Source of the DNA: Octopus vulgaris
Lineage: Eukaryota
NCBI GenBank assembly: GCA_951406725.2
Contig: OX597823.1
Location: 113,584,001 to 113,648,000 of the forward strand
Length of the DNA: 64,000 nt
Direction: 5' to 3'
Positions within the stretch are counted from its first letter, which is position 1; each line of letters begins with the position of its first letter. The notes under the pieces are model-generated. The model was given only the letters and a program-made list of their open reading frames with translations, did no database searches and was not told where the DNA came from. Positions 29,960 through 57,918 of this stretch are shown piece after piece. The position numbers were made by a program, and so were the translations under genes.

Positions 29960-30988
29960 GTGTGTATTTATGTTACAGTGTGTGTACATATGTTCGTTTG
30001 GCTTTGTTTGTATGTACTTGCTTATACATGTTTTGTGTGTATATGTTTTGAGGGAGGTTTACTTGGTTTCACAATGTTGGTAAGAAAATAATTTCACAGT
30101 ACGCAAATAGGTACGAGCACACACACATACACACTCACACAACTCGCAAATGAAAATATAATGAATGGTTATAAAATAGAAAATTAAAAATATATATATA
30201 AATATATATAAATATATATATATATATATAAATTTTAGTACTACTAGAAAATAGTACGAAACACTAAAACAAAGAAAAACTTTATGAAAATTCTTCGCAC
30301 TCCCAAATCCCACACACACACCAAAAATGTCACGCAACCCCTTTTCAAATCAATGAGAAATAATAGAAATTAACAAAATGAAAACACCAAAAATATCTAC
30401 AAATCTAAAAATAAATGTCGGCAATAAAAATAAAAATACATATAAAGAGAAACGTACAAAACAATATATAATATCCGAATGAAAAGGAAACGTATAATGA
30501 AAATCCATTTGAGCGAAGGTAATGCGAATCTGTTTTGGAAAGCAACCGACCATAAGTCCGATGGAATGAATGATGGGGTTTCGGTTATTTTAAATAATAA
30601 AACACAAAAGCCAATAATAAAGAATAATAATGGGATAACTATCTCCATACCTTTCCAACACTTAAATGTTTGTTGATTGCAAGTTATTTACCACCAGCCT
30701 GGTATTTTTTCACTGCTAAATTCGGAAACAATATGTGATTGCGCAGAAATTGTTTGCCAGATATGTAATTATCTTTCGCAGCAACATACCTCTAATAAAT
30801 AAATGAATAAAAAAATTATTACACAAAAAAAAATCTGACGAACGTTAAATATAGAGAAAAAAATAATGAAAGAAAATAAATAGGGAAGCTAGTGTGAAAT
30901 GTTAATGACACAATGAGATATGAATCTATTCTGTCATTGCTTTTGGCTGCTCTGTCAGATATACGTTAATTTATACATACATACATAC

Positions 30989-31038
<50 letters not shown>

Positions 31039-31089
31039 CTAAGTATATTTATATGCATGTATGTATATATATATATTTATGTGTGTGTG

Positions 31090-31141
<52 letters not shown>

Positions 31142-32589: not shown

Positions 32590-32700
32590 AAGTACTTATG
32601 TATCGACTCCAAAGAATGGGGAGTAAAGTCAACCTCGATAGAATTTGAACTCAGGAAGTAAATACCGCTTAGCATTTTGCCCGGCGTGCTAACGATTCTG
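32590..32700 (-). mobile_element. SINE family B fragment
   Basis: gaatttgaactcag...accgcttagcattttgcccggcgtgctaacgattctg. Confidence 0.75.
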
Positions 32701-34211: not shown

Positions 34212-34506
34212 TTGTTTGTTTGTTCCTTCTCGAACTATGCCTGGCTCATAAGGGCCGGTTTATCGGTTTCTTGGCGTATAGGTTCCCCACGTGGACGGGA
34301 CGCCGGTCCATCGCAGGTGAGCTGCAAGATGCAGGAGGAAAGAGTGAGAGAAAGTTGTGGCGAAAGCGTCAGCAGAAATTTCGCCATTACCTTCTGCAGA
34401 CCCGCGTGGAGCTTAGGTGTCTCGCTCATAAACACCCACTTCGTCCGGTCTGAGATTCGAACCCGCGAGTACGGTGCTCTAACCACTAGACCATGTGCCT
34501 CCACAA
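34212..34506 (-). mobile_element. tRNA-derived SINE, family C, with 10-bp TSD
   Basis: Head GGAGGCACATGGTCTAGTGGTTAGAGC...GGTTCGAATC, body CCTGCGATGGACCGGCGTCCCGTCC (MetaSINE/V-SINE-like, from memory), tail (AAAC)n. TSD ATTTTTAGGT at 34200-34209 and 34507-34516. Confidence 0.85.
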
Positions 34507-36242
34507 ATTTTTAGGTGTGAATTCATAGCGTATATATATGTTCATTCAACACGTTGATCAAGGTAAACTAGATTTAACTCCAACACTCCTACCAAATATA
34601 CATTTACTTAAGGCCCAAGCATTCTTTAATTTCCCCGCGTATCTATTTTCATCGATCTCTTACTTGCACTTTTAGCCACCGTTCACATAAGCAAACGATT
34701 GATTATCGCTTACAATAACGATCGATATAGAACTTGGTAAAATATGGCATTCTCATTAAAGCATCCCACTTTCCGAAATGCAGGGCTTATACCGGGTCAA
34801 GGACTATCTTTGATGAATGCATAAACTCACTTTGTTACCTAAACTAGTTTAATTATTTTACATTGCTATGTATGATATTCCCCACAAAAACAATATTTTA
34901 GAAACTCAACTAATGTTCTTCTTTGTTGTAACATATCGATTTCCTTTGTTCAATGACTTTTACTTTCACTTTAAGCCGTTCATAAAATTAGGTGATTGAT
35001 TATCACACACAATAAAGATCGATTTAAAATTCACGTGATGAATTAGTTAATTAACATATCGAAGAAGAAATTGTCTCATTTTTCCTATATAGTTCTAACA
35101 TAATTATTTCTTAAAGTGGCGAAAATTATATTCTTGGTGAGATGAGAAGTCGTCAACATTTCGATTCTTGGCCGATGCCTTTTAAAATCTTTTTACGCGA
35201 AAATACTCTTGGTGAAAGAATGGACGTCAGAGCATGAACCAATTTTAAGTTTTAGACGCAGTAACGTGTCATTTAATAATTACAATGGTTTAAGGAAAAG
35301 GCTAAGCAAAATTTAGGTGTCATTTCATTTTCGAACAATTAGTGCTAATTATCCTTCAAATCCCATCTAGAAAATAACCATATTTTTTAATCCCTAATAC
35401 TGAAACACGAACTAGAACTTGCGCCTGCCATTACTGAAGCAACTAGCGAACACAGGAAGGCGTATTGCTTAGATGTAGCTGTTTATTTTCAATTTCTAAT
35501 TCCCGTTACATTTCCCAATTAAAATTTAATACGCGTTGTACAAAGTGGTAAAAATCACGTTATTTCCTGAAGACTGATGAACGATTTTTACCAATTATTC
35601 AGAGAAGATCTATGTTGGAGGCCTTTTCCCCCTTAAGAAAGAAGGGGAATTGAGATAGGCATTCTGAAAATAGATGTAGAATGATTGCTACATAGCCATG
35701 TCTACTAAAGTTACGTAAGTATCGAGTAGTTTTCTATTTAGTACGTCACCGAAAATAAGTTTAGTTCCTCTCTGTCTAGTTTCAAAACCGTCCTTTCCGT
35801 CGTCCAGATTTCATTCACAAGGTTCTGATCAACACAATATTAGAGTCGAATGAACATTTCCCAAGATACCACACATCTCGGAAGAGAAGATCTTAATGAT
35901 ACATAGAACCACGTTCTGTGTAGTTAGGAATGAAATTATTTTAAGGGATTACGTAGCAGCTGTCTGCTTGACTTAACTCTACCGATGATATTCCTTCCCT
36001 GAAAGGCCAATGGTTTCGTATGACTATAAGTCTAAAGTCGTTGAAAATTTCAAATCGATTATCGAACTTCCTAAATAACAGCAAAGCTCCTTATAGTATT
36101 GAAATAGCCAAAAATTCGTATCTTGTTTATCGATGAATATAGAAAACGTGGATGGTCAAGACGAATAAATCTGATGGGAGCTCTGTTGAAAGAAGTTTGG
36201 CCGTACTATAAAGCAGAAAAATACAGCACAGTTTCAATATAT

Positions 36243-36259
36243 TATATTACTACAGCAGT

Positions 36260-36344
<85 letters not shown>

Positions 36345-36502
36345 TTGTAGTAGTAGTAGTATTGTAGTAGTAGTAGTAGTAGTAGCAGCAGCGGTGGTGG
36401 TGGTAGTAGTAGTATTAGTAGTAGCAGCAGCAGTAGAAGCCGAAGCAGCAGCATCAGTAGTAGTAGTAGTAGTAGTAGTAGTCGTAGTAGTGGTGGTGGT
36501 GG
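36243..36502. repeat. (GTA/GCA/GGT)n compound microsatellite
   Basis: Directly visible. Confidence 0.96.
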
Positions 36503-38487
36503 AATAGTGAAATTAAGAAAATATAAATAGTAACAGAGACTTATTTTTCTATGAATTGAGCAATGATGAAAAATGATGGAGATTGTGAGAAAAACAAGGG
36601 AACAAATTGACTTCAAATGTATACACCATGATAATGTAACACTGCAGAGTCCAAAGCATTTGAGTATTAAAAAGCTGACGGGAAATCCTCGGAAGGACGC
36701 TCTTCCTTTCAAACCAAACTCTAACGAGTTAAAAACGGAAAGCGCGTATTGGATAATGTAATTCAAGCTATTACGACGTGTATTAATGCATAGATAACTA
36801 AAAATTCACTTATTGGATGGCCATGGCAGGAAAGTCTTTGATTATAGGGCTTTAACATCAAGGAAAGATTTTAATTATTGGGCTCTGCCATCAGCGTGGT
36901 ATTAGGTCTTGACAGCAACGCTTAATTTATATTTTCGCCAGAATTGCATATGAAATCGTAATTTGTACGAAGTTTGAATATCTACAAACAACATGAAGTC
37001 GTATCATGATTAAACTAAATAAGAATGTAAAGGACACATAACATGTATCAAGTTTTGAAATCAAATACATTAGTTTCTTTATGTTTACTGATGATCAGAG
37101 TAAATAAAACAACGGACCACCATCAATTAAATTATTTAATTAGATTAACAAGACCGAACCTATTCATCCAAGCACACAAATCACGCATATGTGCATGCAC
37201 ACACATATAATTAAATACATATACATTCATACACATATGCATTCATACATATACATTCATACACATGTATGTATGTATACACACACATACACACACACGC
37301 AAATTCCAATCATTTTAGAGCATGTACTTATAATGTATGTATTGTTGTATTCGTGTAGTTGACGGCCTTTGTAATAATCAGCTACACAATATTTACACTC
37401 ACCGTTTTAAACCAATTTGCTGTGCCTCATAAAAAAAGCAATTCCTTTAATCTCACCTTCGAACCATTTCTACTGTTGTAGTTATAACAATTGTCAACAG
37501 AAATGGTGTTTCTCATTGGCAGCATTGTACTGTCTAAATAAACCGAACTAAAACATTATTTCATTCCTTTTGGCAATCTATGATGAAGAATTCTTTGTGT
37601 TTGTGAGTCTGGGTGTATGTGTGTATATTTGAGTGGCTGTGTGTATGCGTTTTATTTTAGTCCATCTTTTATTGGCATCCGGAATTTGGCGTCACTGTTT
37701 GCAAGTACTTGGGATTTTAATAAAAGCCAACTATTTTATCTACAGAAATTTCCATGAATCTGCTGGAATTGTTCGGACAAATCATTTCCTATCATTTACT
37801 AAAATGTCAATATAGTAAAAACGTTATTTAAACTTCCAAATATTACAAAAGAAAAAAAAAAACATCAAGCTATAGAAAGGCTGTAACAACGTAAAAAAAT
37901 CGAAAACCGAAAGAAAAGCTAAATAAAAAATAATTTGAAAGATGGAGGAAAGGCTTGCTCACTGATTGTGAAATTAGCAACAGTCTGGCGGGGAGAATAT
38001 AATGCATTATAATATGAAGCATTATAGTTTGTGGGCAAATGGAATATTTGACTTCTAAACTGTACATCATCCATTCTTTGTGAATTCAAAATAAGTTCTA
38101 TGTGTATGTCTATCGCGTATTGTCGTTGTGCGCATAGAGACACACCCACGCACCCACACACACATATACACACACACATACAAACACACGCACATATATA
38201 TGCCTATATAACTACACACACACACAAGCACACATATATACATATATATAAAGAGAGGCAGAAAGAAGTTGATGTATATAAATATTATTGTAGTACCGGC
38301 CTCCATCGTCAGGATGGAAATATCAGCCACTACCTCACCTGGATTTCGCTAATAGCCTCGTTAAGTCTTCGGGGTATTAATTCAAACCATTTTAGTACTA
38401 CTAGTACATGTTGTCCATTTCCCTGTCTGTCTATCTATCTACATCTATCTGTATCTATATCAATAGCTATATCTATATCAATATCTA

Positions 38488-38489
<2 letters not shown>

Positions 38490-38578
<89 letters not shown>

Positions 38579-38607
38579 ATATATATATATATATATATAT
38601 CTATCTT

Positions 38608-38640
<33 letters not shown>
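38490..38640. repeat. (ATCT)n(AT)n microsatellite
   Basis: Directly visible. Confidence 0.96.
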
Positions 38641-41397
38641 ATTTCTATATATGTGTGTGTCTGTCTGTCTATTTACATCTATGTATATCTATATAACTAA
38701 TGAGAGAAAGAGAAAAAATGGAATTCACCAGATTCTTTATTAATCACTACCACCGTTTCGACCCTTCGTGCATCGTAATCTCAGGGATGCGATTATGTAT
38801 AAAGAGTTGTAATGCAACATTCGGTAAAAATTACCTCGTCAGTTGGATTGCGAAAGATACATACTTCCCTAATCTCCGTTTCGTTTATTTCAATTGGAAT
38901 ACATTCTCAGTTTAAGTTTTCATCTGTATTTATTTTGTGTTTCTCCTCGATACAAACAAAACAAAATGTCTGACAGTTACAAAATTCAAGAGCGCACTTT
39001 GATGCAGAACGGAGGAACTGCCAATCAAATATTTAAGACCACAAATATTACCTCAATTTTCACTTATAAATTTTCCATGAACTACCGCTGAAAACAGAGT
39101 CGGTAGGGAAATAGTTGATCTAGAAGAAAGGCCCCATCTCAATGAAGGAGAGCGGTGCGCAGTAAAGCCGTTGAGGGGAAGGCTCCGAAACAGTGCACAA
39201 TATTTTTTCTTTTGATGATCCCATATACAGGCATGTATCCGGTGACCGGTGGTTTCAGGTGGTAGCACTTGCATATACAAGTTGGTTGAAAAGACGAGTG
39301 AGGGAACAAAAAGCAAGTGAATTAGTTTGACGCTCGGGAAAAAATGGAAAAGCCTTTGACCTTTCCAGTTTATGCTGTTTAAGAGAAGACGAGGAGAAAC
39401 AGAGCGGAGAGAGTTTACATAAAACAGACACAGAAAACCAAAACAGAAACAGCTGTTGGGATTAGTGGTTCCACGTGTTGCCCGGGCATGGCTGTGTGGT
39501 AAGATGCTTTTTTCCCAACCATATTGCTGAAGGGAATATATTAAACGAGAAGCAAAAGCAGAATATTGTGAAAGTAACTATGTGCAAAACACTTTGAAAA
39601 AAGGCTCAAATTGATCATTTCATCTGCTAGAAATACCACACAAATCACCTTTCATTCTCGCCTGGTTCTCCTAAAGGTCGAATGTATCCAGGGCAATGTA
39701 ATCTTAGTCATATAATACTTCATCACAATTACGACGCTAATAAAAATATTTCAAAATTAGCAGTGTTTATGAAGCAGAGATTTTGGATAAGTTCATATAT
39801 AAAATTACAATTCCAGGGGAAATTCTGAATATATGTTGCTTTTTATTAGATGTAAATGTTTCTTATATAATGCCTATATATTAATCCTTAAATTTCCCAA
39901 GCTCATTTACCATTAGATATGCAAAATGTATACGAACATATATGAACAGAGTTATACTCACAAAAATTACAGGATGACATAATCTGCATGCATCTGTCCC
40001 TGTTCGCATATAACTTTCACGCGTATCCATAGATGTGTAAATACTGAGATAGGAATTTATACATATATTCATATTTGTGTATAAATACATATTGATAGAT
40101 AGATGTAGATACAGAGAGAAAGAGAGAGAGATACACAAATATAGATATATAAAGATAGACATTGACAGATATATATATATATATATAGATAGATATTCCT
40201 ACGTATGTATTCATTCATGAATGTATAGCGTATATCTTTATTTATTTATATTAGATGTTTGCTCAAATGACATCCATTGTATGTTTGAATGTGTTGCTTC
40301 GTACCTGTGTGTTTTCCGCTTATATTTTATTACCATTTTTCCTGTCTTTTTACCTTCAATTCTTTGACTTTTATTGCAAGCTCTAAATTAAACATCACAA
40401 TTGACCGTAAATCATTATTTAATACATCGATAAATACTTGCTCATCTGTTATCTCCACTCATTATCTGTCACGCATTTCTAAATTGTATTGTTGTTATTG
40501 ACAATTGTGTTAACATCATCCTGTTCATTGCAAATAACGAAGCGGAATTAAACGAACACGTGACAATCATGCATTTAAATTTTATTTCCGGTTTTGCGAT
40601 TCTGACAAGAGCTTCAATTTGAATGATCATAAAATAATAATTATTAATTCGAAGCACGACTATTTAACTTCTTTGCCTTTTATTATTCTATATTTATGCC
40701 TTTATTAAATTTATTTACGTTTAGGAGTAAATGCATTTCCCAAATAATATAATTTCAAAAACAACAAATAATTTTCATTTCAACAAATCTTTCGGAAAGC
40801 AAAGCATATATTTTCAAATATTAATACCTATTATTCCATAAATGAAATATATAAGTGATTTCTTACAGAGACATGAGTTCAAAAATATTCGTGGTGGTGA
40901 TAGTGAATTAAATCGTCCTCGTATATATCTGGTATTTTTCTTGACTTCTGAAGGGTGAATGAAACTTCAAAACAAGAATATATATCATCTGATATTCTGT
41001 TATTTTCTATAAGGATTCTACCAAAACACAACCCTATTAGAAATTAAATAAATAATAATATTTTATGTAGGACACACGGTCAGAAATTTAGATGTTGAAA
41101 AAGTAAATTATATCGATCTTAATTCTTAACTGGCGCCTCATGTTATCGACTCTACAAGGATAAATGTTATAGCTAAAAGATGAGAACTCTGAAAGTATAG
41201 AACTGAAGCAAATAAATCGAGATACTATATCAGAAGTTCTAATGAATCTGTAAAATTACGATCCTAATAAAAATAATAACTGTGCCAGATTTTGACACAG
41301 ATGCAGCAATTTTGGAGTCGAAAGTTGATTATATCAGACCCAGAACATGACTGTTACTTTATTCTATCAACTTCGGAAGAATGAAAATGGTTTCACA

Positions 41398-41540
41398 TTT
41401 TGGCACAAGGTCAGCAATTTCGAGCAAGGGAGTATGTCGATTGCATCCATCCAGTACTCTGCTAGTACTAATTTGATAAACTCCCGAAAGGATGAAAGGC
41501 AAATGCGACGCCGGTGGAATTTAAACAATAGAACGTAAAG
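41398..41540 (-). mobile_element. SINE family B, diverged
   Basis: cccgaaaggatgaaaggcaaa...ggaatttaaac..agaacgtaaag. Confidence 0.65.
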
Positions 41541-41555
41541 ACGTATTATTATTAT

Positions 41556-41616
<61 letters not shown>

Positions 41617-41661
41617 AATGCTACTACTACTACTACTACTATTATTATTATTATTATTATT

Positions 41662-43498
41662 GCCTTTTCACAGCTTCTGACGCTTGACAACAAAAAGAGA
41701 AGAAACGTACTACGTAAATACAAAATCTCATAACAAGGAATACCAGAGGTAAAGGAATAGCTAAAGCAAGATATCCTCACCAAAGCACAAAGAATCCACC
41801 GGTATGAGAAACGTCAACGTTTCTTTGAACAATACAAACAGTTCAACTGAAACCCCCAATCGATTCTCCCAAGAACTCGGCAAAAATATAATAGAAATCA
41901 ATACAGCACCAACAATAGAAGTGGAAAAAAATATGGTCGGTGAAGGAACAACCTCAGAAAAGATATATCTATACAACGAACACAGCACCTGAACAACTCT
42001 GGAACCTTTTAACAACTGGAGAGATTACCCATACACTGCAAACACAAATAACTGGAAGGCATCCGGGCATGACAAGATTCCCAGCTTCTATTTTAAATAT
42101 CTAACAGTAACACATAAAAACCTGGCTAAGAGTTTTAATGAAATACTAGCAAAGTCAGAGACATTGCTTGTATGGCTCACGGAAGGGAAATTGGTCCTAA
42201 TTCCCAAATACACCGAATCGGTAAACCCACAAAATTAAAGACCGATAGCTTGTTTAACTACAATTTACAAAGCTTTTACTGCAATAATATCGCAGAGAAT
42301 GGGCAAACGACTGGGAAAAAACAGAAGAGGGAAAGGGGTACTTCAAGGGTTCGAACGGTTGTAAAGATCAGCTACTGATCAATTAGCCATAAATGAAGTC
42401 AGCCGCAGAGAGATGAAGGATCTACGTATGGCCTGGATCGATTACCGAAAAGATTTTTATAATATTCTCCAAAGATGGATCCTAGATATACTAGGCATGA
42501 ATAAGGTAGCACCAATAATCATAAAATATATAAAACATTCCATGAATAAATGGCAAACAGCTCCAGATAATTAAAACCAAAGCCATCCCCATTAGAAGAG
42601 GAATCTTCCAGGGAGACACGCCGTTTCCTCTCCTTTTCTGATTGACACTGACACCTTCAGCTGATATGCTAAACAAAACTGGATGTGGATACGACTTTTG
42701 CGACAAAACAATCAGCCATTCCTTGTACATGGATGATCTAAAACTGTACGTTACGAATGATAAACGGCTGGAAGATTTATTACAGGCCGTACATATATAT
42801 GCCAAAGAAATAAACATAAAATTTGGCTTAGAAAAATGCGCCAAAGCAACCGTGAAAAGAGGAAAACTAGTTAAGAGTAGCAACATTGCACTAGAAAAAG
42901 CAAAGGAACTAACAGAATTAGACCAAAGCTAAACGTACAAATATTTTGGAATCAATGAACTAGATACAACGCACGCAAATGAAAGATAAGAAAAATACAC
43001 TATAGACGAGTTAGAGTAATACTGGAAACAGAGCTCAATGCTAGGTATTGACACTCCAGCCGTGCCAGTTATAAGTTACAGCTACAATATTCTTAACTGG
43101 AATATAAATGATCTAATCAAAATAGAAAGGAAAGCAAGGAACATAATGACAGGTTTTATGTTGCAACACACAAAATCTGACATAGAAAGGTGTTATATAT
43201 AAAACGTATGGAAGGAAGGCTAGAGGCCTTATGCAGCTAGAAAACTATTGAAAAAAAACCACCATAGGACTACAGAAAAACCTACTTCAGAATCAAACAA
43301 AGCTAATAGAAATAGCCACAAACAAAACAGAAAAATTGCTTTTGTCTTTAAGGAAGCTGACAATTTCAAAAATAAAGCCATGGTACCTAACAACTATGAA
43401 GAAAAAGAAGAAACAGCAAACGCTGTAAAACAACTGAAATCCAAACCCAAACTGGAACAGCAAGAGATCACGAGGAAATGATGGCAAGAAAAACCTTT
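41662..43498 (+). mobile_element. Dong/R4-clade LINE, degenerate copy
   Basis: Fragments RRGIFQGDT, HSLYMDDLKLY and KFGLEKCAK, collinear with the minus-strand copy at 47102-50022. Begins at a (TAT)n tract and has many stops. Confidence 0.88.
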
Positions 43499-43949
43499 GG
43501 GTTAACGAATGAAAAAGTTTTCGTTAGTTTGAGCTCCAGTTATGTCTTTCAGTTTTCCTTTCTGTTGTAAACAGAACATCAGCCTTCGTCGTTGATTGCA
43601 ATTTAACGTCAATCAATGTGGCTTTGATAAAAACAAAATTGTACTTCAATGTTTTTGTGATAGGTTGATATGATGATAAGGAAACAGCGTTTGTTCAACA
43701 CAAATTTAAATGACCACACTGCACCAACATGATATACACAAATATAATATAGATCTAACACAGACGAATCTCATCAATGCCATTCTAAATACCACTATTT
43801 TCAGGAAAACTTACTCTTATTGTCATTGTTTCATTCATATTTTCGCCCGCGATAATCCTTTCGCAGTCCATAGAACTCTATAAGATATTCTCTTATTTTT
43901 TCATGCTGATACTGCATTGACTGTTACCTATTTTTATATGGTTCTTTAT

Positions 43950-44720
43950 TGAATAGGCTGGGGTGTTGTAATGTTTTTGTAGTGAGAGATTCTTTACAAT
44001 TTAATGTAAGCTTCTTGTCTCAAAACCTATTTGATATTGAGTGCTTGGATATCTTCTATTTCTGTGCTTCTTTTATCTCCCTTTGTTTATCGGTGTGTCT
44101 TTTTCTTGAAGATACGAGAATCATTGTATTTTATTTTAAATATTTATTTGTACTTCGATTCTTCACGTTTTCCTTTGGGTTTAGAGTTTCTAATATGAGA
44201 CCTTTTGTGAGACTATCGATTTCCCTCTGTGATTACTGAGCCGGCTGCATAGAATATCTGATTTATCTTGACGATATTAATCTCCGCATATATTTCCACT
44301 ATATGTATGATGACCTAGTTTGCTTTGCTTTTACTTTTTGCTATTTCATCATTAACTTTGATCTTTCTGAATGTCTTTCGTTGATCCGTCGTAAGATATT
44401 CTATTGATTTAAAATCTTTAACGGTTTCCCTGTTTATATTCTTGTCGTATTTTATTATTTCACTTTAGATATTTCTACTCCTAGATTTTTTGCATTTTCT
44501 CTCTGTTCATATTTGCGTTTCTATACATTACGATCAACTTCTTTTTTTTTATGAATATATTGTATGAATGCTGGGACTGTTTTGTTGTTTCATTGTTTAT
44601 TGAGTTTGCTTGATTGTTACAACTTCATTTCTCTGATTTGTTTTCTTGATGTTTATACTTTTAAAGATATTATTTTCGTTGCTTTAACTTCTGAGGTTGT
44701 TTATCAACGTCAGATGCAAT
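43950..44720 (-). mobile_element. Possible ancient RTE-type LINE reverse transcriptase remnant
   Basis: A-rich minus strand with weak fragments AKNLGVEISKVK and NINRETVKDFKSIEYL, resembling the RT 'GLxINxxKT' and 'VxxFxYLG' regions. Confidence 0.35.
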
Positions 44721-44752
44721 TCTTCCATGTGCACGCTCTCTGTCTCTCTCCC

Positions 44753-44843
<91 letters not shown>

Positions 44844-46374
44844 TGTATGTTGAATTTTCATGTCATGTATGCTGAATATTGTAGTAGTTTAATTTTGATA
44901 CTAAAGTATATTTGTAAAACAGGTTTGTTGAATGGAAATGAATTCCACTCGAGTCTATTTATTCCATTTCCTGTTTATTTATTATATTTACGGTTTAATG
45001 TACAGTTCTCTTCATTTATATTAGTATTATTTCCATCGAATTCTGGTCTCTGTTTCATTTCTTACGATGCACATTATTTTCTTTAATTTCTGTTTTACGT
45101 ATCACTTTGAAATATTCTTTGTGGAAAAAATACGCCCAATATGAAACTGACTTATAAATTATTACCAAGTTTTGAAATTGTGGCTAAGGTTAGCAATATA
45201 TCGGTCACTAGGCGGTGGCGAATGACAATAATATTGATTAGTACGTCGAAGTAAAAAATGAGCTGAAGATTTAAAGAAACGCCTGTAAGAGAGGTAATAT
45301 ATACAAGTGCGATCACTTCGGCTATAAAAGGAGTGGTGTAAGAGGTTGATATATTGATACTAGAGAAAGAAATATGCTTACAGAAGGGCAAATAGCGGGT
45401 GAAACTAATGATGGGCTTGGAAGTAAAAGTGCTGGAAGTGCTGGCAACGAAAGATGGAGATGTAGACAAATTTTTTCAACAAGATGGAGGTTAGAACTGT
45501 GACAGAGGGAATTATGGCCAAGTCAACTGATATGGAAATGCTCAGAAAATGCAGAACATCGCATTCTATTGCTCTCGTTTTTTTGTATATATATAATATC
45601 AGTCGAACGATTGAGTAAACGGAAGCATAGACATTTATATTTATAGAGTAATTAACCCCCACCCCCCAGCACACACACCTCAATCATTACAAGCTTGTGG
45701 TGTAATCTAAAGCGACAAATTTACGAGAATGGACGCCGATTTAGGATCAAGGATGAACTGTGGATGGCAATGGTAGATGTAACCCGTGGTATAACATCAG
45801 AATAGACCCAGAAGGTAGCATGTTCCTTGGAACAGCGTCTTTTCCAACATATCTCTACAAACCATCATATATCCCTTACTAACGTATATTTTTCGAACAC
45901 TGTTTATTTGTTTATTCTTATTTCTTCTTCGGTTATGCCTCTATGTATTCATTTCAGTATATACACCAAGCAATTAAATCGGTATATTTCTTGTGTACAT
46001 GAGTTTTAATTAAACCTCAGTAATAATTTGAGAAAGTGAAAGTTAAAGTAAATTTGGTAAATGGCCATAGTTTTTCAAATGCAACACACAGATAACTGTT
46101 ACCGCCATTCTGTGAAAACTTAGTTGAATTTCAACGAGTGGGTTTTCAATAAAAGACAAATTACAGCGTGTGTGTGTTTGTGTGTTCAGAGATGAATTAG
46201 AAGCAGGAAAAGTGTTATAAACAATATCGAACACACACACAAACTCTATATATGTGCTTTGCTGTTTCACCTACGCTTCTGTTACAATCCATAAAATGTT
46301 GGATTGTCGTAACGCCGACTTCCGTATACAGTATCCTTAGTAAAACCAGTAAATACACGACTATTTCTCACCGC

Positions 46375-46515
46375 CCTTTCTTTTATTGGCCACACAGGGT
46401 CAAACACTGAGGGGATAGCACATGTTGGGGACAGTAAAACATAGATGGAAAGAATAAATTAGATAGAATGATAAATGAAATGAAGCCGTTCGGCCCCACC
46501 TCCGAGCGACTTCAT
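46375..46515 (-). mobile_element. Short Tx1/L1-like 3'-UTR fragment
   Basis: tttcttttattggccacacagggtcaaacactgaggggat...atgaagccgttcggccccacc resembles 20381-20580. Confidence 0.5.
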
Positions 46516-46922
46516 GTTGGGAGTGTCGTTGCTTCAGCTGTTGTTCTTGAAACTGAAGATGCTGCTCTTGTTGTCCCTGTAGTTGCTGCTGCTACAGTTG
46601 TTGTTCTTTCAGTTGCTGTTGTTACTGTTTTTGTGACTCGAGCAAAGTGGACTACAAATTTTCCATGATTGTACGATATTTTCGAAAAATTCACACAACA
46701 AAAAATTTTGGAGGTTTGTTAACTCCTCGTGAGTTCAGTTCTATTTTTAAGAGATGAGGAATTATGTACATTATTTATATTCGACGCATATTTGTCCTCA
46801 TCTTGTTTGTTGTAAACACAACGCTTCTGCTGATACACCCTCCAGCCTTCTTCAGTTGTCTTGGGGAAATTTCGAACCTGGGTTCTCATTCCTAAGGTAT
46901 TTTTTCGATGTTGTTGTTATTG

Positions 46923-47009
<87 letters not shown>

Positions 47010-47010
47010 G

Positions 47011-47101
<91 letters not shown>

Positions 47102-47104
<3 letters not shown>

Positions 47105-50021
47105 TAGTTTTATTTTTATTTTTATAGCGTGCTTTCACTTCACTACCGAGCGCAGCTCTGTGTGCCTTGGGTATGTGCTGTGATTTGTTGTGATGCTCTG
47201 ATGGTTATTGTATGGAAAGTGTTCTGCGTAGGATGTGGGCAGTGCCTAGTAGTGCAATTTTCTGTATGTTATATGTGTTTGTAAGTCCTGGTGTTTTTGT
47301 TATGTATTTGTCTGAATATTTTTTTATCATGCCTAATGCACCTACTATGATAGGAATTGTTTCTGTTTTCAGATTCCACATTCTAGTTACCTCTATTTCC
47401 AGGTCTTTGTATTTTGAGAGTTTCTCCATTTCTTTTAGAGACACGTTGTCATCTGCCGGTATTGATACATCAATTAAAAAGCATTTTTTTCTTCATGATC
47501 TCTGACAACTATATCTGGTCTGTTGGCCTTAATTTCTCTATCTGTGTGTATCGGCATATCCCAGAGTATGGTTGCTTTCTCGTTTTCTGTGACCTTTTCT
47601 GGTGTGTGCCTATACCATCTTTTTTCTGTTGTTATTCCATAATGTTGGCATAGCTTCCAATGTATGTAGGTTCCAACTCTGTCATGTCTGTGAATATATT
47701 CCTTCTTAGCCAGGACTGGGCAGCTAGAGATAATAGGATTTATTGTTTCTTGTCCATCTCCACATATTCTGCAGTTACTTGTAATATTTCTTTTCATTAC
47801 ATGTTTTTGGTAATTTCTGGTGGGGAGGCTTTGGTCTTGTGCTGCAATTAAAAATCCCTCTGTTTCTGCTTTGAGTCCTGAGCTTCTCAACCATTGCTGG
47901 GATTTTTCTTTATCTATTTCTTTTGCGTTTAGTTTAGTGCAGTATTTACCATGAAGGGGCTTTTCTTGCCATCGTTTTATCATGGTTCGTTGCTGTTCTG
48001 TTTTTAGTTTGGATTTCATTTGTTTTATAGCTTTTGTTGTTTCTTCATCTTCTTCTTCTTCTTCTTCTTCATGTTTATTAGGTGGTATGATTTCTTGTTT
48101 GTATTTGTCAGCTTCCTTAAATACTGAGAACAGTTTTTTGTTTTGCTCGTGTTTTGCCGCTATCTGGATCAGTTTTCCTTCCTTCTGAAGTAGATATTTT
48201 TGCAGTCCTATGGTGGTTATTTTATAGTAGTTTTCCAGCTGTATAAGGCCTCTACCACCTTCTATACATTGTATATATAGTCTTTCTATGTCAGATTTTG
48301 GGTGATGCATCCTAGATCCTGTCATTATTTTTCTTGTTTTCCTATCTATTTTGGCCAGTTCATTTCGTGTCCAGTTAAGGATACTGTAGCTGTAACTTAT
48401 AACTGGGACAGCTAAAGTGTTGATACCTATTATCTTGTTTTTAGCATTGAGCTCTGTGTTTAGTATTGATCTAACTCGTCTATAATATTCTTTTTATATT
48501 TTCTCTTTCATTTGTGTGTGTTGTGTCTTATCTAGTTCATGGATTCCTAAGTATTTGTAAGTTTGGCTTTGGTCTAATTCTTTTATTTCATTGGTTTTAT
48601 CTAGTGTGATGTTGTTACTCTTAACTAGTTTTCCTCTTTTCATGGTTACTTTGGCGCATTTTTCTAATCCAAATTTCATATCTATTTCTTTGGTAAATCC
48701 ATGAACTGTCTTTAATAGTGTTTCCAGCTGTTTGTCATTTGCAGCGTATAGTTTTAGGTCATCCATATATAAAAGGTGGCTGATCGTTTTGCCGTAACAT
48801 TTATATCCGCATCCAGTTCTATTTAGCATATCAGATAGAGGTGACAGTGCCAAGCAGAAAAGGAGTGGAGAGAGCGTGTCTCCCTGGAATATTCCTCTTC
48901 TAATGGGGATGTCTTTGGTTTTCATGAGTCCCTCTTTTGTTTGGAGGTGTAGGACTGTTTGCCATTTATTCATAGAGTGCTCTATGAATTTTATGATTGT
49001 TGGTGCTACTTTGTTAATGGCTAGTGTTTCGAGGATCCATGTGTGGGGGATGCTATCAAACGCCTTTTTGTAGTCAATCCAGGTCATACTGAGGCCTTTC
49101 TTCTTTCTGTGGCTGTCTTCAGTTATGGCTTTATTAATCATTAGTTGATCTTTACAGCCATATGAGCCTTTGCGGCATCCTTTCTGCTCTTCTGGGAACA
49201 GTTTGTTTTCGTCCAGGTGCTTGTTCAGCCTTTGTGATATCACTGCAGTAAATGCCTTGAACATAGTAGGGAGGCAGGTTATTGGTCTGTAGTTTTCTGG
49301 TTTTTCTGTTTCATTTGATTTGGGAATTAAGATGATTTTCCCCTTCGTGAGCCATTCAGGCATTGTCTCTGGCTCTGCTAGTACGTTGTTAAAGTTTTCA
49401 GCCAGCTTTTTGTGCATTCCTGTTAGATATTTCAACCAGAATTTGGGAATCTTGTCATGCCCAGGTGCCTTCCAGTTGCTTAGTCTTTGCAGTGCCTGGG
49501 TGACCTCTTCAGTTTTTTATGGGGGTCCAAAGTTGTTCAGATGCCGAGTTTGTAATTTTGATACTCCTTTCTTTTGGTGGTTCGTTCGCCGACCATATCT
49601 CTCTCCAGAATTCTTCCAATTCTTCTGCCGTTGGTGCTGCAGTGACTTCTATTTTATTTTTGCCCAGTTCTTGGTAGAACTTTTTGGGGTTGGAGCTGAA
49701 CTTTTTGTTTTCTTCAAAGAAGCGTTGGCGTTTCTTGTACCGGCGGGTCCTTTGTGCTTTGGCAAGGATATCTTGCTTCAGCTTTTCTTTTATTTCAGGC
49801 AAATATTTCTCTGTCATGTTATATTTGCGGAGTATTTTTGTTCTCTTTTTGTTGCTCAGTAGCGTTGATTCTTTGCTGATTTCATTAAGAATCGACAGGT
49901 CTTTTCTAATTTTTTTTATTTTGCTTTGGATGTTATTTATCCACAGTGTTTGTTTGGGTGGTGGTACTCCTGTTTGGGCGGGTTTGGGTGAGTATCCAGC
50001 TTCTTTTGTGGCTGCAGTGGC

Positions 50022-50022
<1 letters not shown>
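47102..50022 (-). mobile_element. Dong/R4-clade restriction-like-endonuclease LINE, 5'-truncated, inserted in (TAA)n
   Basis: RT motifs YRPITCL, EQKGC, WIDYKKAFDS, RGIFQGDTLSPLLF and LLYMDDLKL; zinc knuckle CRICG..ETINPIISSC; RHD; RPDIVV; KYKDL; QKIALLGTAHIL. A few frameshifts. Both ends lie in TAA repeats. Confidence 0.93.
48494..49435 (-). pseudogene. Reverse transcriptase domain of the Dong/R4 LINE
   Basis: 313-aa frame containing the core RT motifs, bounded by frameshifts. Confidence 0.92.
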
Positions 50023-50064
<42 letters not shown>

Positions 50065-50080
50065 ATTATTATTATTATTA

Positions 50081-50139
<59 letters not shown>

Positions 50140-50266
50140 GTTGTTGTTGTTTTTGTTGTTGTTGTTGATGTTGTTGCTGTTGTTGTTGTTATTGTTCAGG
50201 TCACTGCTTAGTATCGAACTCGGAATCTTGGGGTTAGTAGCCCGTGCTCTTAACCACTACGCCCAC

Positions 50267-50537
50267 GGGCATATGGCGTTGTGGTTACGAGCGCGGGCTA
50301 CTTAACCCAAGATTCCGAGTTCGAGTCCAAGCAGTGACCTGAACAATAACAATAATAATAATAATAATAACATCGAAACAATACCTTAGGAATGAGAACC
50401 CAGGTTCGAAATTTTCCCAAGACACCTGAAGAAGGCTGGAGGGTATATCAGCCGAACGTTGTGTTAAAAACAAACATGATGAAGACAAATATCCTTCAAA
50501 TGTAAATAATGTAAATAATGTAAATAATGTCCTCCAT
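50267..50537 (+). mobile_element. SINE family E, right arm (tRNA head, (AAT)n, hammerhead-like tail)
   Basis: A-box TGGCGTTGTGG, B-box GAGTTCGAGTCC, (AAT)n, then a tail containing CTGAAGA-A-GGCTG...CAGCC-GAA-CGTT. Confidence 0.85.
50421..50465 (+). ncRNA. Degenerate minimal (Penelope-type) hammerhead ribozyme motif
   Basis: GACAC-CTGAAGA-A-GGCTG(gagggtatat)CAGCC-GAA-CGTT-GTGTT. A second copy at 46815-46860 (-) has GAAG. Both copies are mutated at the GAAA box. Confidence 0.6.
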
Positions 50538-52427
50538 CGCGAGTTTATTAATTCCACGTAAATTATTTAAATCCTCGTCGCCATGTTATATCCTTAGAAT
50601 GTTGGATTGTTATAACGCCCACTTCGGTATACAATACACTTAGTAAAGCCAGTAAAGGTACTACTATCTCTGATCGCATACTACGTACTCTGGTACTTCA
50701 CGTACTTCTCTTTACATATAATGACTATGTTATTCCATTGGTCACGTGGGAGTGGTGTACCTTTATTTTTAATTCCCTACAACAATTCTTTTCGATATAT
50801 TGGAGCTGACGCTCACAAAGTTCTGGATGTTAAAACACCTGGAGATTTATCATGATCAGGTGAGACATTTCACCTCATGGTTCAGAATAGATAAAGCACG
50901 ATGTTTCGTCACTTTTGTGATTTATCAACATCACGAACCCGGACCAATTCTAAGGCAAATTGAATAGACCGCCCGTAACTATATATAAATAGATGCAAGG
51001 ACCGGCTCTTTGAGAGAGTCATCTACAATGCGCCGAATCGCAGCCGATCGGTCGAATGATCGGTTCACTTTTCTTTTCTTTTCGATTCACCTAGCGGAAA
51101 CGAAACTATTTACTTTGTTGAGATGCATATCAGAAACAGATGTAAGATTATGTGCACAAATTCATGATTTTTTAAAGACCATTATTTTTTGCTTTTTCTT
51201 GTATATGACTCTGTGTTGCCATACCATATTAACTGGTGAATGCAACCAAGGAATTAGAAAGTCAACTCGTGCTGGATTTTAACTTCCGATTTTGCCTTAG
51301 GATTATCCAGAGTTCTATACCAATCAGAAAACCTTTTAATGTGGTGCGTTGGTATTTGCAGTGAGCTTAAGAAGAATCTTATCAGGATCAATAATCCCTT
51401 ATCAATATCTATATATTCACAGGCACACCAACACTCGTATATATATGTATGTATGAATGTATGTATAGCGTTACAGATACTGGTTTCAAATCTTGAACTC
51501 GTAATTCTTCACACGCTTCTTTAGGAGAGTGAATAAACCCAATTCAAAATTATTGGTATTTAGAATCTAGAAAATAAAATGACAGTGTAGTCACTAGAAT
51601 ACACAATATTCCAGCCTGTTCTAGTATAGGAAACACCAAGCCATACTCATATAACGGCGGCAGTTGATTATATTTCACGGACATCTTTGAGATCTTGACA
51701 TGTAAGAATAATGCTATTGACAAATTTGAAAAATTACGTTTAAGCATTATGTATAATTATATCTTGTCGCTCTAGTAGAATTGTACTTGTCATCAATTAT
51801 CTTAACAACAGATAAGTGGGGAATACGTCTTAGCGTCATATTTGAAAACCTTGTCATTTTGAAGGGTGATTGACTTGCTTTCAATGTAACTGTATCGTTT
51901 ATTGCAAAACATAAACTACCCATAAAAAAGAAACTCACTGGTCGCCGGCTTTAATATCTGCACTCACAAATTCCAATTTCATTCTGTTTGTCCCTACCTC
52001 CATAGACAAATTGCATTTTGCCGAACGATGACTGAATTCTCCAGAAGGAAAGGAATGGCTAAGCAACTATGTGGATTCTCATAATGTCATGTAATATATT
52101 ATGTGATGTACATCGTATTCGTAATAAATAATGAGGGAAATGAATTCCGTGCAATGTAAACAATCAAATCGTTATTGTTTACTAAAAGGTACACCGCGTG
52201 TACAATGCCTGATACTCGGATTAGCAGGATAGCCGTGGCTCCAAAGCTCTGTTTAACTCTGAATGTATCGCAATACTGACTACTCAAACGGAGTAACGTG
52301 TTAGTTAGCTATACTGGCAGATGCTTCCAACTTGATTTCCCAAGATCTAGTTATTCCTCATTGCTTTACTATATGCGTTTGCGTCTGTGAATGTGTGAGT
52401 ACGCATGTTTGCATGTGTATGTATATA

Positions 52428-53190: not shown

Positions 53191-53264
<74 letters not shown>

Positions 53265-53347
53265 GTGAAAAGGAACACACGAGTTGATATATATGAAAAA
53301 ACAAGTAAAAAATAGAAAATGCTAAAATAATTTTATAGTGAACATTT

Positions 53348-53385
53348 CAGTACCGGTTTCGGTCATTTTGAGACCTTTTCAACTG
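53348..53385 (-). ncRNA. Minimal hammerhead ribozyme in the inverted pLTR copy
   Basis: Reverse complement of 57266-57303. Confidence 0.72.
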
Positions 53386-54377
53386 TAACGATTAAATAAT
53401 TAAATTTAGAAAAATTAGAAGAAAAGTTTTTTTAAAAGAATATTTCTATAGTAGTGTTCAGATTTAAGTGGCATTCTGCCTTTCTCTGACTCCCTTGTTT
53501 GCACTTGTGTGTTCGAGGTAGTTGTGAGTTCTTGGTAGGGTAGTAGAGGGAAGGCTGGTGAGGAAAGGGGGTGGGAGAATCTGGGAGTGCCCTGATGGTC
53601 GTATTTTGAATGGTCAGTGGCGGCTGGCAGTCTCAGTTCAATTCAGGATTGTTTATAGAATTAGCGTAGGTGTTATACTAAAAAACATTAGTGACAAACT
53701 TAAGGGGTAGGGGGTGGAGAAGAAGAAGAAGAAGAAGAAGAAGAGAGAAGAAGAAGAAGAAGGAGAAGGAGAAGATGATGGTGATGGTGGTGATGATTAT
53801 GACGACGATGATGATGAAGAAGAAGAAGAAGAAGAAGAAGAAGAAGAAGAAGAAGAAGGAGAAGAAGAAGAAGAAGGAGGAGAAGGAGAAGATGGTGGTG
53901 ATGATGGTGGTGATGATGATGACGCCGATGATGATGATAACGATGATGATGAAGAAGAAGAAGAAGAAAAAAACAGAGAAGGGAGAATATGAATGGGTGT
54001 AAATATAGCTATGAAGGGGCTGATTAGTAATGGATTCTATGGAGTGTAGTATTTGTGTGTGTATATATATTTTTTTCTTTTATTCTAAAGTTGAGGTATA
54101 TTAATTGTTTGTCGTAGACCCGTTAAGAAGTGGCTTGTATTTTGTAATAAAGAGATTTTCTTTACTTATTCTTTGTCTCGAGGTTGTATCGTCCCTAAAT
54201 TGGTAGAGGGGGAAAATTCTGAAGTTTGGTGTTTTTTTGTTGGCGCAAGTATCTATGTGTTGGCTAAAAGCTATTTTTCTGTTTTGAACTCACAAGGAAC
54301 TAACAGCAAACCAAATAAACATACTTTCCAAAGGACTCAAGTTTACACCCACCCCACAACACCCCAACTACAATGAA

Positions 54378-56531
54378 ATGAAAGAAGACATCGCAGAATT
54401 CTGCAGAAAATTAAGACTTACTGAGGAGCTATACGATAAATACAACGAGGACGAATCGTTAGCCAGAAATAGGAGTAACTACACCCCCTCGAAAGGTAAG
54501 AATAAAACACTTGATGATTTCTGTGACCACATATCAAATTACCCATATCAACATATGCACAAACAAAAACACAAACCAAACTTCAGCAAAAAAGAATGGG
54601 CTGAGTTGAACAAATTAAAACTAGATAAAACAATAACAATCAAAGAGGCCGATAAAGGGAGTGCTGTTGTCTTAATGGATACGACATTTTACATAACTTT
54701 GGTACTTTCTATGCTGGAAGACACAACATACTATGAAAAGGCACAAAACTACAGTCAACAAAAAATAATGAGGGAACTAAAATCCATATTAAACCCATAC
54801 AAAGCAGGGCTCACCGACAAAGAATATGATTATATGACCAATTTCACAAGTAAAACTAGCCAATTCTACGGTATACCTAAGATCCACAAAAGTGAAAAAA
54901 TAAGCAACGCATGCAAGATAGCTACAGACAAAATAATTAAAGTCCCTAATCCTAATGACCTCAAATTGAGACCCATAATAGCAGGTCCCGCATGCGAAAC
55001 CCACCGCCTCAGTAACTTTTTAGACACCCTGTTAAAACCACTCCTCAAACATGTCAAAAGCTATATAAGGGACGACTTAGATATGCTCAATCACCTACCG
55101 AATACTATAAACAAAAACACCATACTGGTATCCTTCGATGTAGTCAACCTCTACTCCAATATCCCCCACAACCTAGGACTAGAGGCAATCCAATTCTGGC
55201 TAGAGAATCACGCCAACGAACTACCACACCGCATCAAAAAAGAATTTGTGATAGAAGGGGTTAAATTCATCCTGGAAAATAACTTCTTCGCCTTCAATGA
55301 CAACTTCTACCGACAAAAATCGGGGACTGCGATGGGTACACGAATGGCCCCCTCCTTTGCCAACCTAGTCATAGGATACCTAGAGATCAGTCTGTATCGT
55401 AAGGTTCTAGAAAGATATGGCAGCCCTTTCTCCATCTACATAGAAAACAACTGGAAGAGATATCTAGATGACTGTTTCATCCTTTGGCATAAAAATATAG
55501 AAAAACTCATAGAATTCCAGAAAATTTTAAACGGACTGGACGTAAACATCCAATTCACGATGGAATATAGCCAACAACAACTCCCCTTCCTCGATATCCT
55601 CATTAAGAAAGCTAATAATATAATAGAAACAGACATATACTATAAGCCTACAGACTCTAAGCAATATCTTCCATTCAATTCATGCCACCCCAGACACACC
55701 AGGATTAATATCCCCTTCAATCTAGCAAAAAGGATATGCACTATAGTCTCTAACGCAAACACCAGAGACACACGACTACAAGAACTAAAAGATACCCTAA
55801 TCACCAGGAACTATCCACCTTCACTTATTGACAAGTGCATTCAACGTGCCCTTCAACTTAACATCAAGGAACTGAGACATCCCAAATCAAAGAAAAACTT
55901 ACAACCAAAAGCCTTACCATACATCTCCACACACAACCCTCTCAATAACGAAGCCTTCGACACCATCCTCCACAACATACCCCTCCTAAAAAAAGACCAC
56001 AGAATGAACACAATCCTCCAAACACACACGATCATAAAAAGCAAAAGACAGCCTAGATCCATGAAAAGTCTCCTTACACAAGCCCGAATTCACTCTTCAA
56101 CACAGAAGCCGACAGTAAAAAAATGTGGAAGACCCAATTGCGGGATATGCGACTATCTAATCGAGGGTTCTGAGTTCTCCTTCAAACAGGGACAACGGTT
56201 TACAGTGAAAAGCAACTTTACATGTGCTTCAGAGAACCTAATATACTCACTAACCTGCTCCGGGTGTCAAGAGCAGTACATAGGCCAAACAAAAAATGGT
56301 TTGCGTAAACGAATGGCCCTGCACAGATCCCAGATAAAAATTCCCCAAAACAGAAAAATAGCTTTTAGCCAACACATAGATACTTGCGCCAACAAAAAAA
56401 CACCAAACTTCAGAATTTTCCCCCTCTACCAATTTAGGGACGATACAACCTCGAGACAAAGAATAAGTAAAGAAAATCTCTTTATTACAAAATACAAGCC
56501 ACTTCTTAACGGGTCTACGACAAACAATTAA
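54378..56531 (+). CDS. PLE reverse transcriptase plus GIY-YIG endonuclease (N-terminally truncated; frame open from 54288)
   Basis: Upstream in-frame LSKGLKFTPTP; IKEADKGSAVV, YGIPKIHK, LRPII, SFDVVNLYSNIP, GTAMG, RYLDD, LPFLDI, YYKPT; Cys linker KCGRPNCGIC; LIYSLTCSGCQEQYIGQT. Confidence 0.95.
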   Translation: MKEDIAEFCRKLRLTEELYDKYNEDESLARNRSNYTPSKGKNKTLDDFCDHISNYPYQHMHKQKHKPNFSKKEWAELNKLKLDKTITIKEADKGSAVVLMDTTFYITLVLSMLEDTTYYEKAQNYSQQKIMRELKSILNPYKAGLTDKEYDYMTNFTSKTSQFYGIPKIHKSEKISNACKIATDKIIKVPNPNDLKLRPIIAGPACETHRLSNFLDTLLKPLLKHVKSYIRDDLDMLNHLPNTINKNTILVSFDVVNLYSNIPHNLGLEAIQFWLENHANELPHRIKKEFVIEGVKFILENNFFAFNDNFYRQKSGTAMGTRMAPSFANLVIGYLEISLYRKVLERYGSPFSIYIENNWKRYLDDCFILWHKNIEKLIEFQKILNGLDVNIQFTMEYSQQQLPFLDILIKKANNIIETDIYYKPTDSKQYLPFNSCHPRHTRINIPFNLAKRICTIVSNANTRDTRLQELKDTLITRNYPPSLIDKCIQRALQLNIKELRHPKSKKNLQPKALPYISTHNPLNNEAFDTILHNIPLLKKDHRMNTILQTHTIIKSKRQPRSMKSLLTQARIHSSTQKPTVKKCGRPNCGICDYLIEGSEFSFKQGQRFTVKSNFTCASENLIYSLTCSGCQEQYIGQTKNGLRKRMALHRSQIKIPQNRKIAFSQHIDTCANKKTPNFRIFPLYQFRDDTTSRQRISKENLFITKYKPLLNGSTTNN

Positions 56532-57265
56532 TATACCTCAACTTTAGAATAAAAGAAAAAAATATATATACACACACAAATACTACACTCCATAGAATCC
56601 ATTACTAATCAGCCCCTTCATAGCTATATTTACACCCATTCATATTCTCCCTTCTCTGTTTTTTTCTTCTTCTTCTTCTTCATCATCATCGTTATCATCA
56701 TCATCGGCGTCATCATCATCACCACCATCATCACCACCATCTTCTCCTTCTCCTCCTTCTTCTTCTTCTTCTCCTTCTTCTTCTTCTTCTTCTTCTTCTT
56801 CTTCTTCTTCTTCATCATCATCGTTATCATCATCATCGTCGTCATAATCATCACCACCATCACCATCATCTTCTCCTTCTCCTTCTTCTTCTTCTTCTCC
56901 TTCTTCTTCTTCTTCTTCTTCTTCTTCTTCTTCTCCACCCCCTACCCCTTAAGTTTGTCACTAATGTTTTTTAGTATAACACCTACGCTAATTCTATAAA
57001 CAATCCTGAATTGAACTGAGACTGCCAGCCGCCACTGACCATTCAAAATACGACCATCAGGGCACTCCCAGATTCTCCCACCCCCTTTCCTCACCAGCCT
57101 TCCCTCTACTACCCTACCAAGAACTCACAACTACCTCGAACACACAAGTGCAAACAAGGGAGTCAGAGAAAGGCAGAATGCCACTTAAATCTGAACACTA
57201 CTATAGAAATATTCTTTTAAAAAACTTTTCTTCTAATTTTTCTAAATTTAATTATTTAATCGTTA

Positions 57266-57303
57266 CAGTTGAAAAGGTCTCAAAATGACCGAAACCGGTA
57301 CTG
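57266..57303 (+). ncRNA. Minimal hammerhead ribozyme (U3-A8 core variant) in the PLE pLTR
   Basis: CAG-TTGAAAA-GGTC(tcaaaat)GACC-GAAA-CCGGTA-CTG: stem I CAG/CTG, stem II GGTC/GACC, palindromic ACCGGT stem III, GUA cleavage triplet. Confidence 0.75.
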
Positions 57304-57352
57304 AAATGTTCACTATAAAATTATTTTAGCATTTTCTATTTTTTACTTGTTT

Positions 57353-57918
<566 letters not shown>

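Follow-up and report, generated by a model that had tools for sequence, protein, structure and literature searches.

What is a head-to-head pair of tRNA-headed repeats doing in the octopus genome? A 64,000-nucleotide stretch of Octopus vulgaris DNA (assembly GCA_951406725.2, contig OX597823.1, positions 113,584,001 to 113,648,000 of the forward strand; hereafter the window, with positions counted from its first letter) contains two abutting copies of a dispersed repeat, family E, each with a tRNA-like head, an (AAT)n middle, and a 3' half with a hammerhead-like motif. A first-pass annotation made from the sequence alone interpreted the pair as a polymerase III (Pol III) short interspersed nuclear element (SINE) mobilized by the machinery of a Penelope-like element (PLE) rather than by a long interspersed nuclear element (LINE). 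We find that PLE machinery is indeed involved, and no LINE, but that E is not a separate SINE: the genome contains an autonomous Penelope/Poseidon-type element, and all of family E, tRNA-like head included, is its pseudo-long terminal repeat (pLTR). For a PLE, a dimer of this kind is ordinary, and the new part of the finding is the tRNA-like head with its A and B boxes at the 5' boundary of the pLTR.

Family E is the terminal repeat of an autonomous element

A reverse transcriptase (RT)–endonuclease (EN) fragment found in a random block (L164) runs into an E head, and genome searches reproduced this linkage from both sides of the repeat. Among 30 loci retrieved with L164, 20 carry a sense head after an open reading frame (ORF) encoding RT and GIY-YIG domains, most of the others breaking off earlier, and a search with P0032, an outside relative, retrieved 22 loci extending to the end of the ORF, 20 of which have the head next. 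Conversely, the sense E tail runs directly into the ORF in 18 of 30 loci retrieved with the N-terminal part of the ORF, a set that includes partial tandems (L209, L214, and L217). L336 and L355 are near-complete units, each with an inverted arm. The order of the unit is thus ORF end, approximately 25 nt, head, (AAT)n, and hammerhead plus tail, continuing into the ORF; the pLTR arises by partial tandem and encloses the hammerhead and the ORF start.

Copies are approximately 90% identical to the majority sequence, which reads from an ATG inside E through the hammerhead and tail into the RT (662 aa open) and, after one frameshift, into GIY-YIG, for a total of about 850 codons. The frameshift sits at an ambiguous homopolymer and is taken as an alignment artefact. 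A 569-aa frame stays open from RT to EN in one natural copy; none of the copies seen is intact at full length. An 847-aa outside relative (55% identity) has the same E-encoded N-terminus (E = 1e-62 over 252 aa), which identifies the hammerhead half of E as genuine coding sequence of a PLE. E is thus no SINE furnished with a tail from elsewhere, the tail half being N-terminal coding sequence of the PLE ORF. E-derived peptides also match predicted proteins of Octopus sinensis and O. bimaculoides. In two predicted Octopus proteins (P0001 and P0003, one of them called a dystrobrevin beta isoform), the first 30 to 36 residues correspond to the E ORF start; their first exons may derive from E, or the annotation may be wrong.

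The partner protein has 2,416 relatives at E ≤ 1e-40, some of which carry PF01541. Its RVT_1 scores, 27.7 and 29.5 bits, lie slightly below the cut-off of 29.6, and the Pfam GIY-YIG profile gave no match to it; by eye, the ORF displays YVDD, DKG, and VYSIPC/CCHH-type motifs, in the arrangement of a single ORF with a PLE-type RT followed by a C-terminal GIY-YIG. No CX2-5CxxC linker was found between RT and EN in the partner, whereas the PLE in the window has one. Since the Penelope/Poseidon clade is described as lacking this linker (PMC8557442), its absence points to Penelope/Poseidon as the probable clade. A sister Poseidon family was sought with P0032, and all 30 loci returned belong to E's own family, so that the search yielded no comparator without a tRNA-like head; a metagenome scan for relatives with flanks gave 49 candidates, none of which was confirmed. 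In some loci (L004 upstream of the head, L210, L218, L220, and L230), the N-terminal part of the ORF is fused directly to the pLTR; these internally deleted units are possible non-autonomous derivatives.

E pairs insert with the geometry of Penelope-like elements

Neighbouring E copies are arranged as inverted pairs. All 16 neighbours less than 1 kb apart among the first 100 matches listed are head-to-head, with one further tail-to-tail and one same-strand pair when the distance is extended to ≤3 kb; in a separate count within 4 kb, 44 neighbours are head-to-head, 4 same-strand, and 1 tail-to-tail (one locus counted twice). In a 60-locus set, comprising the first 60 such loci, all in the first 6.4 Mb of C1 and picked regardless of the 5' end, 36 loci have two arms: a tailed arm is paired with an untailed one in 34, and both arms are short in 2. 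That 34 of 36 have exactly one tail fits two cDNAs begun at two RNA sites on opposite strands. The remaining sets contributed 43 pairs, 42 of them unique (36 long plus short, 4 short plus short, and 2 long plus long), and share one locus with the 60-locus sample.

Target-site duplications (TSDs) scoring at least 8 surround 25 of the 42 pairs, against a mean of 0.6 and a maximum of 3 with swapped flanks; the scored lengths, 9 to 16 nt, may include a few element bases. The pattern is absent from control SINEs, two families of which yielded 3 head-to-head neighbour pairs among 90 matches and 0 among 29. The proposal that the window dimer is a single insertion is upheld. An inverted 5'-truncated copy, a 30- to 40-nt tail on one side, and a TSD around the unit are all present in E, and the described anatomy of PLEs comprises an inverted pLTR, a 9- to 10-bp TSD, a 30- to 40-bp tail at one end, and a palindrome at the pLTR 5' end (PMC3846280 and PMC8557442).

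These data also bear on a conventional tRNA SINE moved by a Dong, RTE, or CR1 LINE, with dimers formed by chance or recombination. The short form of E terminates in 9-nt repeats resembling the tails of LINEs, and many E copies contain Dong elements. However, the Dong pieces are nested within (AAT)n, the pairs resemble PLEs in orientation, in having a tail on one arm only, and in where the TSD lies, and the tail forms the beginning of a PLE ORF; ORF linkage refutes this explanation, to which we attach almost no credence.

A predicted minimal hammerhead is kept in most arms scored

E carries a predicted minimal type I hammerhead with CUGANGA and GAAA core boxes, an extra base between positions 9 and 10.1, a G10.1-C11.1 pair, and a palindromic 15.2-16.2 segment, and the same set of features is listed for metazoan minimal hammerheads (PMC4209133). 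The predicted cleavage triplet is GUU, and stems I and II fold in a natural copy. Of 173 arms spanning the motif, 43 were dropped for gaps, and the core is kept in 93 of the 130 scored. In the window, however, both copies have a damaged GAAA box (GAA in the right arm and GAAG in the left). N7 is the sole common non-CpG variant, its A allele being enriched by window-like selection, and no compensatory stem pair beyond CpG decay was found within this single family.

No support for a separate SINE lineage of solo copies

Family E is large. An 18-mer near its 3' end occurs 12,696 times exactly, and its exact presence in 26 of 63 covering arms gives a rough estimate of 31,000 arms. A count over sixteen blocks of 50 kb, their positions fixed in advance, gave 13 to 15 arms, which extrapolates, again roughly, to 45,000 to 50,000. 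Solo copies exceed ORF-linked ones approximately 5- to 10-fold.

This excess would be expected if solo E were a non-autonomous SINE lineage with separate masters, mobilized in trans by the PLE, which may itself have recaptured the head. A solo long arm could be a source, as it carries the A and B boxes and both of the putative RT start sites considered below, and non-autonomous PLE derivatives have been described (10.64898/2026.07.22.740005 and PMC8557442). Yet no lineage-diagnostic site was found at 276 positions compared between 81 and 132 solo and 31 and 49 ORF-linked head and tail segments, respectively, and bimorphic sites have similar frequencies in the two sets. The two sets differ most at the fold-back junction and in where the repeat ends, and one more differing site (p = 4e-5) is due to scattered changes in the ORF-linked set. 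A separate lineage is thus unsupported because no diagnostic site splits solo from ORF-linked copies, and the hammerhead half is PLE coding sequence; we consider such a lineage improbable. A SINE would be a non-autonomous family sharing no more than the 3' tail with its partner, whereas the whole of E lies within the autonomous element, and the partnership originally proposed does not hold in that form.

The tRNA-like head as a candidate Pol III promoter

The head is most similar to genomic tRNA-Arg(TCG), the best of 25 distinct tRNAs (46 of 73 positions identical, z = 7.8), with Arg(TCT) and Ala nearly tied. The octopus SINEs OR1 and OR2 are reportedly of Arg tRNA origin. The A and B boxes of the E head are conserved, CpG decay aside, at tRNA-like spacing. 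ARAGORN and Rfam made no tRNA call on the window heads, nor any call on the E hammerheads.

Arms stop at a 5' wall. Among 100 arms, 54 reach +60, 30 reach +1, 3 run into native upstream sequence, and 1 extends beyond −40, so that 27 of the 30 arms reaching +1 stop near the 5' edge of the head. Genome-wide exact 18-mer counts from the ORF end to the tail are 879, 1,172, 3,685, 5,660, and 12,696: they go from 879 to 1,172 over the 90 nt preceding the boundary and then rise from 1,172 immediately upstream of it to 3,685 at +1 to +18, an approximately 5-fold step after calibration on 32 to 35 copies, with wide error. Many junctions retain only 2 to 7 upstream bases, and the start of a type-2 Pol III transcript would fall within these few bases. 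Runs of four T (T4) are absent from the 2,675-nt majority unit, whereas each of four other elements has 4 to 6; ten frames at GIY-YIG loci of other PLE families have 1 to 6 T4 runs per kb. Pol III transcription of E is plausible; the 5' wall and the T4 deficit bear on it indirectly.

The reading we favour, with modest confidence, is that E is the pLTR, the dimer an ordinary PLE insertion, and the head likely an internal Pol III promoter giving the excess of short, SINE-like copies. By analogy with work on an anole PLE (PMC11167929), the RT/GIY-YIG protein would nick both strands and begin one cDNA on each, using two internal RNA start sites that lie approximately 260 and 295 nt downstream of the head's first base and some 35 nt from each other. 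A head-started transcript would hold both RT start sites within its first 300 nt, so that its copies would be pLTR-only, and the two cDNAs would join head-to-head at the GCCC-AC-GGGC palindrome, either by folding back or by annealing. With a tRNA-like head acting as a Pol III promoter, the prevalence of short, SINE-like copies would be accounted for. That head-started transcripts give such pLTR-only pairs, and that the A and B boxes drive these transcripts by Pol III, appears on balance somewhat probable. As to the order of origin, either a tRNA-headed repeat was captured by the PLE or the head was gained in place.

Several observations weigh against this promoter role. The T4 deficit fades under stricter shuffles (P = 0.007, 0.05, and 0.17 for mono-, di-, and trinucleotide shuffling), the test sets a majority sequence against single-copy controls, and G4 runs are likewise absent from the majority unit; the natural frame L177 has 3 T4 runs, and among 31 arms at RT-selected loci, 4 have a T4 variant in the pLTR, as does the right arm of the window dimer. 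The 5' wall coincides with a hairpin (−9.7 kcal/mol) at the native boundary, and 24 of the 60 loci have a single arm only. In three RNA-seq runs mapped on L217, read starts or ends do not accumulate at the head or the hammerhead; depth on this locus is equal on both strands and mirrors genomic copy number, and is thus no evidence either way. An RNA made by Pol III, being uncapped, serves poorly as an mRNA. Finally, rotifer PLEs have palindromes at pLTR 5' ends, with TATA/Inr motifs proposed (PMC3846280), and Drosophila virilis Penelope has a LINE-like internal promoter (PMC2377424).

An alternative keeps the element and the PLE mechanism the same but makes the head a passenger, a captured piece of tRNA or SINE, with transcription by Pol II or read-through and the wall produced by cDNA fold-back at the palindrome. 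A perfect fold-back palindrome is found, by exact match, at 351 loci, and the fold-back form replaces native upstream sequence in 22 solo arms; pLTR palindromes and self-priming are already known (PMC3846280), the RNA-seq carries no start signal, and the T4 statistics are weak. Set against this, the head begins at the boundary with its boxes at tRNA spacing, the few upstream bases kept at many junctions lie where Pol III would start, and the majority unit is free of T4. A passenger head is, in our estimate, unlikely, although it is the foremost competitor of the promoter reading. Also unlikely is an extended form of the promoter reading, in which the whole 2.7-kb coding PLE would be transcribed by Pol III from a captured tRNA-derived promoter in its pLTR and translated from that RNA, one promoter yielding both the autonomous element and its SINE-like swarm.

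The window locus and its neighbours

The window dimer (Table 1) is an ordinary two-armed PLE insertion with standard PLE anatomy. Its parts were placed correctly by the first-pass annotation: both copies have the A- and B-box head, (AAT)n middle, and hammerhead-like part, they meet head-to-head at 50263/50267, and the left head is slightly 5'-truncated, positions +1 to +8 being absent. The reported 9-bp direct repeat with one mismatch was also found and sits within a longer repeat (13/14 nt, with one mismatch and one indel); our anchored TSD scorer misses it because the 9-mer begins 6 nt beyond the right arm.

Table 1. Features of the family E dimer in the window
Feature	Positions	Strand	Remarks
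Left TSD copy	46723..46735	+	Includes the 9-mer TCGTGAGTT (46727-46735)
Left arm, 3' half of pLTR	46736..46916	-	Long form with ~32-nt PLE tail (46736-46767); corresponds to partner ORF start
Left minimal type I hammerhead (predicted)	46815..46860	-	GAAA box mutated
Left arm (AAT)n middle, distal side	46917..47101	-
Nested R4/Dong-like LINE in (AAT)n	47102..50021	-	5'-truncated, frameshifted; RT, REL-type C-terminus; secondary, not E
Left arm (AAC/AAT)n middle, proximal side	50022..50196	-
Left tRNA-like head, positions +9..+73	50199..50263	-	88% identity to right head
Junction	50264..50266	.	Remnant of GCCC-AC-GGGC palindrome at pLTR 5' boundary
Right tRNA-like head	50267..50339	+	A box 50274-50284, B box 50317-50328
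Right arm (AAT)n middle	50343..50372	+
Right arm 3' half	50392..50530	+	ATG of the partner ORF at position 50392; short form without a tail, its end (50530) lying in TGTAAATAA repeats
Right minimal type I hammerhead (predicted)	50421..50465	+	One A of GAAA lost
Right TSD copy	50532..50545	+	Includes the 9-mer TCGCGAGTT (50537-50545)

Of the 3.8-kb span, 2.9 kb is the nested LINE, unmentioned in the first-pass annotation. It matches RVT_1 (6.8e-34), its probable assignment to the R4/Dong clade being read from motifs. Dong targets (TAA)n (PMC7998251), and the LINE would have inserted later into the (AAT)n of the left arm. The (AAT)n middle of E is repeatedly interrupted by elements with LINE-like 3' ends; inserts in L040, L044, and L052 share the 3' end of the window Dong, and those in L039, L042, L053, and L056 have different ends. 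Given this recurrence, E serves as a landing pad for TAA-targeting elements. A second, older Dong-like fragment (41688-43495), 75% identical to the nested LINE, lies beside a trinucleotide repeat.

The neighbouring PLE (53261-57360) had been said to combine a hammerhead with inverted arms. It has RVT_1, a weak GIY-YIG match, inverted arms, and a weak hammerhead match (Rfam HH9 at 19.7 bits, under the gathering score). Delimited here at 53262-57364, it is a PLE of Neptune type with an open frame of 747 codons, (TA)n to either side, an approximately 30-nt tail on the left arm only, and a hammerhead with a U3-A8 core variant of a kind already described (PMC4209133). The first-pass annotation proposed comparing the E tail with autonomous PLEs; the tail is continuous with the Penelope/Poseidon-type ORF but has no match in the window PLE, which was rejected as partner for lack of E-tail similarity in its RT-to-pLTR part. 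Other Neptune-type PLEs were rejected likewise, with no E similarity in 30 GIY-YIG loci (29 PLE-like and 1 host-like gene); where their ends were seen, they have different hammerheads and (TA)n ends. An abundant Neptune-type family (L067-L090) has 781-codon open frames, ends at (TA)n, and carries, downstream of the EN domain, a U3-A8 hammerhead core; EN scores are identical among many copies, and the family may therefore be recently active. Another short repeat beside (TA)n runs (L077 and L118-L119), unrelated to E, carries an antisense hammerhead-like motif.

Relationship to known elements and implications

The closest described counterparts of the E element are anole PAc (PMC11167929) and Adineta vaga Pen2, Pen2a, and Pen3 (PMC3846280). 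Like it, they have a single ORF of approximately 840 to 850 aa with RT and C-terminal GIY-YIG, a pLTR containing the hammerhead and first codons, an inverted pLTR, a 9- to 10-bp TSD, a 30- to 40-nt tail at one end only, a palindrome at the pLTR 5' end, and head-to-head junctions. E differs from them in that its pLTR opens with a 73-nt tRNA-like segment with A and B boxes followed by (AAT)n, and in that the arms in solo pLTR pairs number tens of thousands. Its putative head promoter is also unlike the PLE promoters described so far, which are TATA/Inr-like or LINE-like internal.

Other short repeats share single traits with E. Schistosoma Sm-alpha and Sj-alpha likewise unite a Pol III-type promoter and a hammerhead, but are described as non-coding and often in direct tandem arrays (PMC6765202), whereas E is dispersed, head-to-head, equipped with a minimal hammerhead, and part of a coding PLE. 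Animal non-LTR retrozymes are short repeats that carry a hammerhead, show a relationship to the pLTRs of PLEs, and are considered to depend on PLE enzymes, and vertebrates have non-autonomous hammerhead repeats derived from PLEs (10.64898/2026.07.22.740005); retrozymes are head-to-tail tandems by definition, with no tRNA head described in the portions available, whereas E pairs are overwhelmingly inverted (44 versus 4 same-strand). The octopus SINEs OK, OR1, and OR2 (Ohshima and Okada 1994), set beside E by description only, have a tRNA-derived head as well, and OR2 is cited as a CORE SINE (PMC4758252), whereas the body of E is PLE coding sequence. A literature search covering few subscription journals, in the texts available, found no tRNA-headed pLTR or Pol III PLE; the family may be present in Repbase, Dfam, SINEBase, or the PMC13282606 library.

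A tRNA-type promoter combined with internal RT start sites in a PLE terminal repeat would be a route to SINE-like elements that dispenses with a SINE-LINE partnership, and the 30,000 to 50,000 or so arms of E would probably be filed as SINEs in repeat libraries. If Pol III did make the coding RNA, this would be an unusual Pol III-transcribed mRNA, and the whole-element version would amount to a SINE born in place out of its partner's own terminal repeat. Family E also offers an extensive natural sample for studying the cycle of PLEs.

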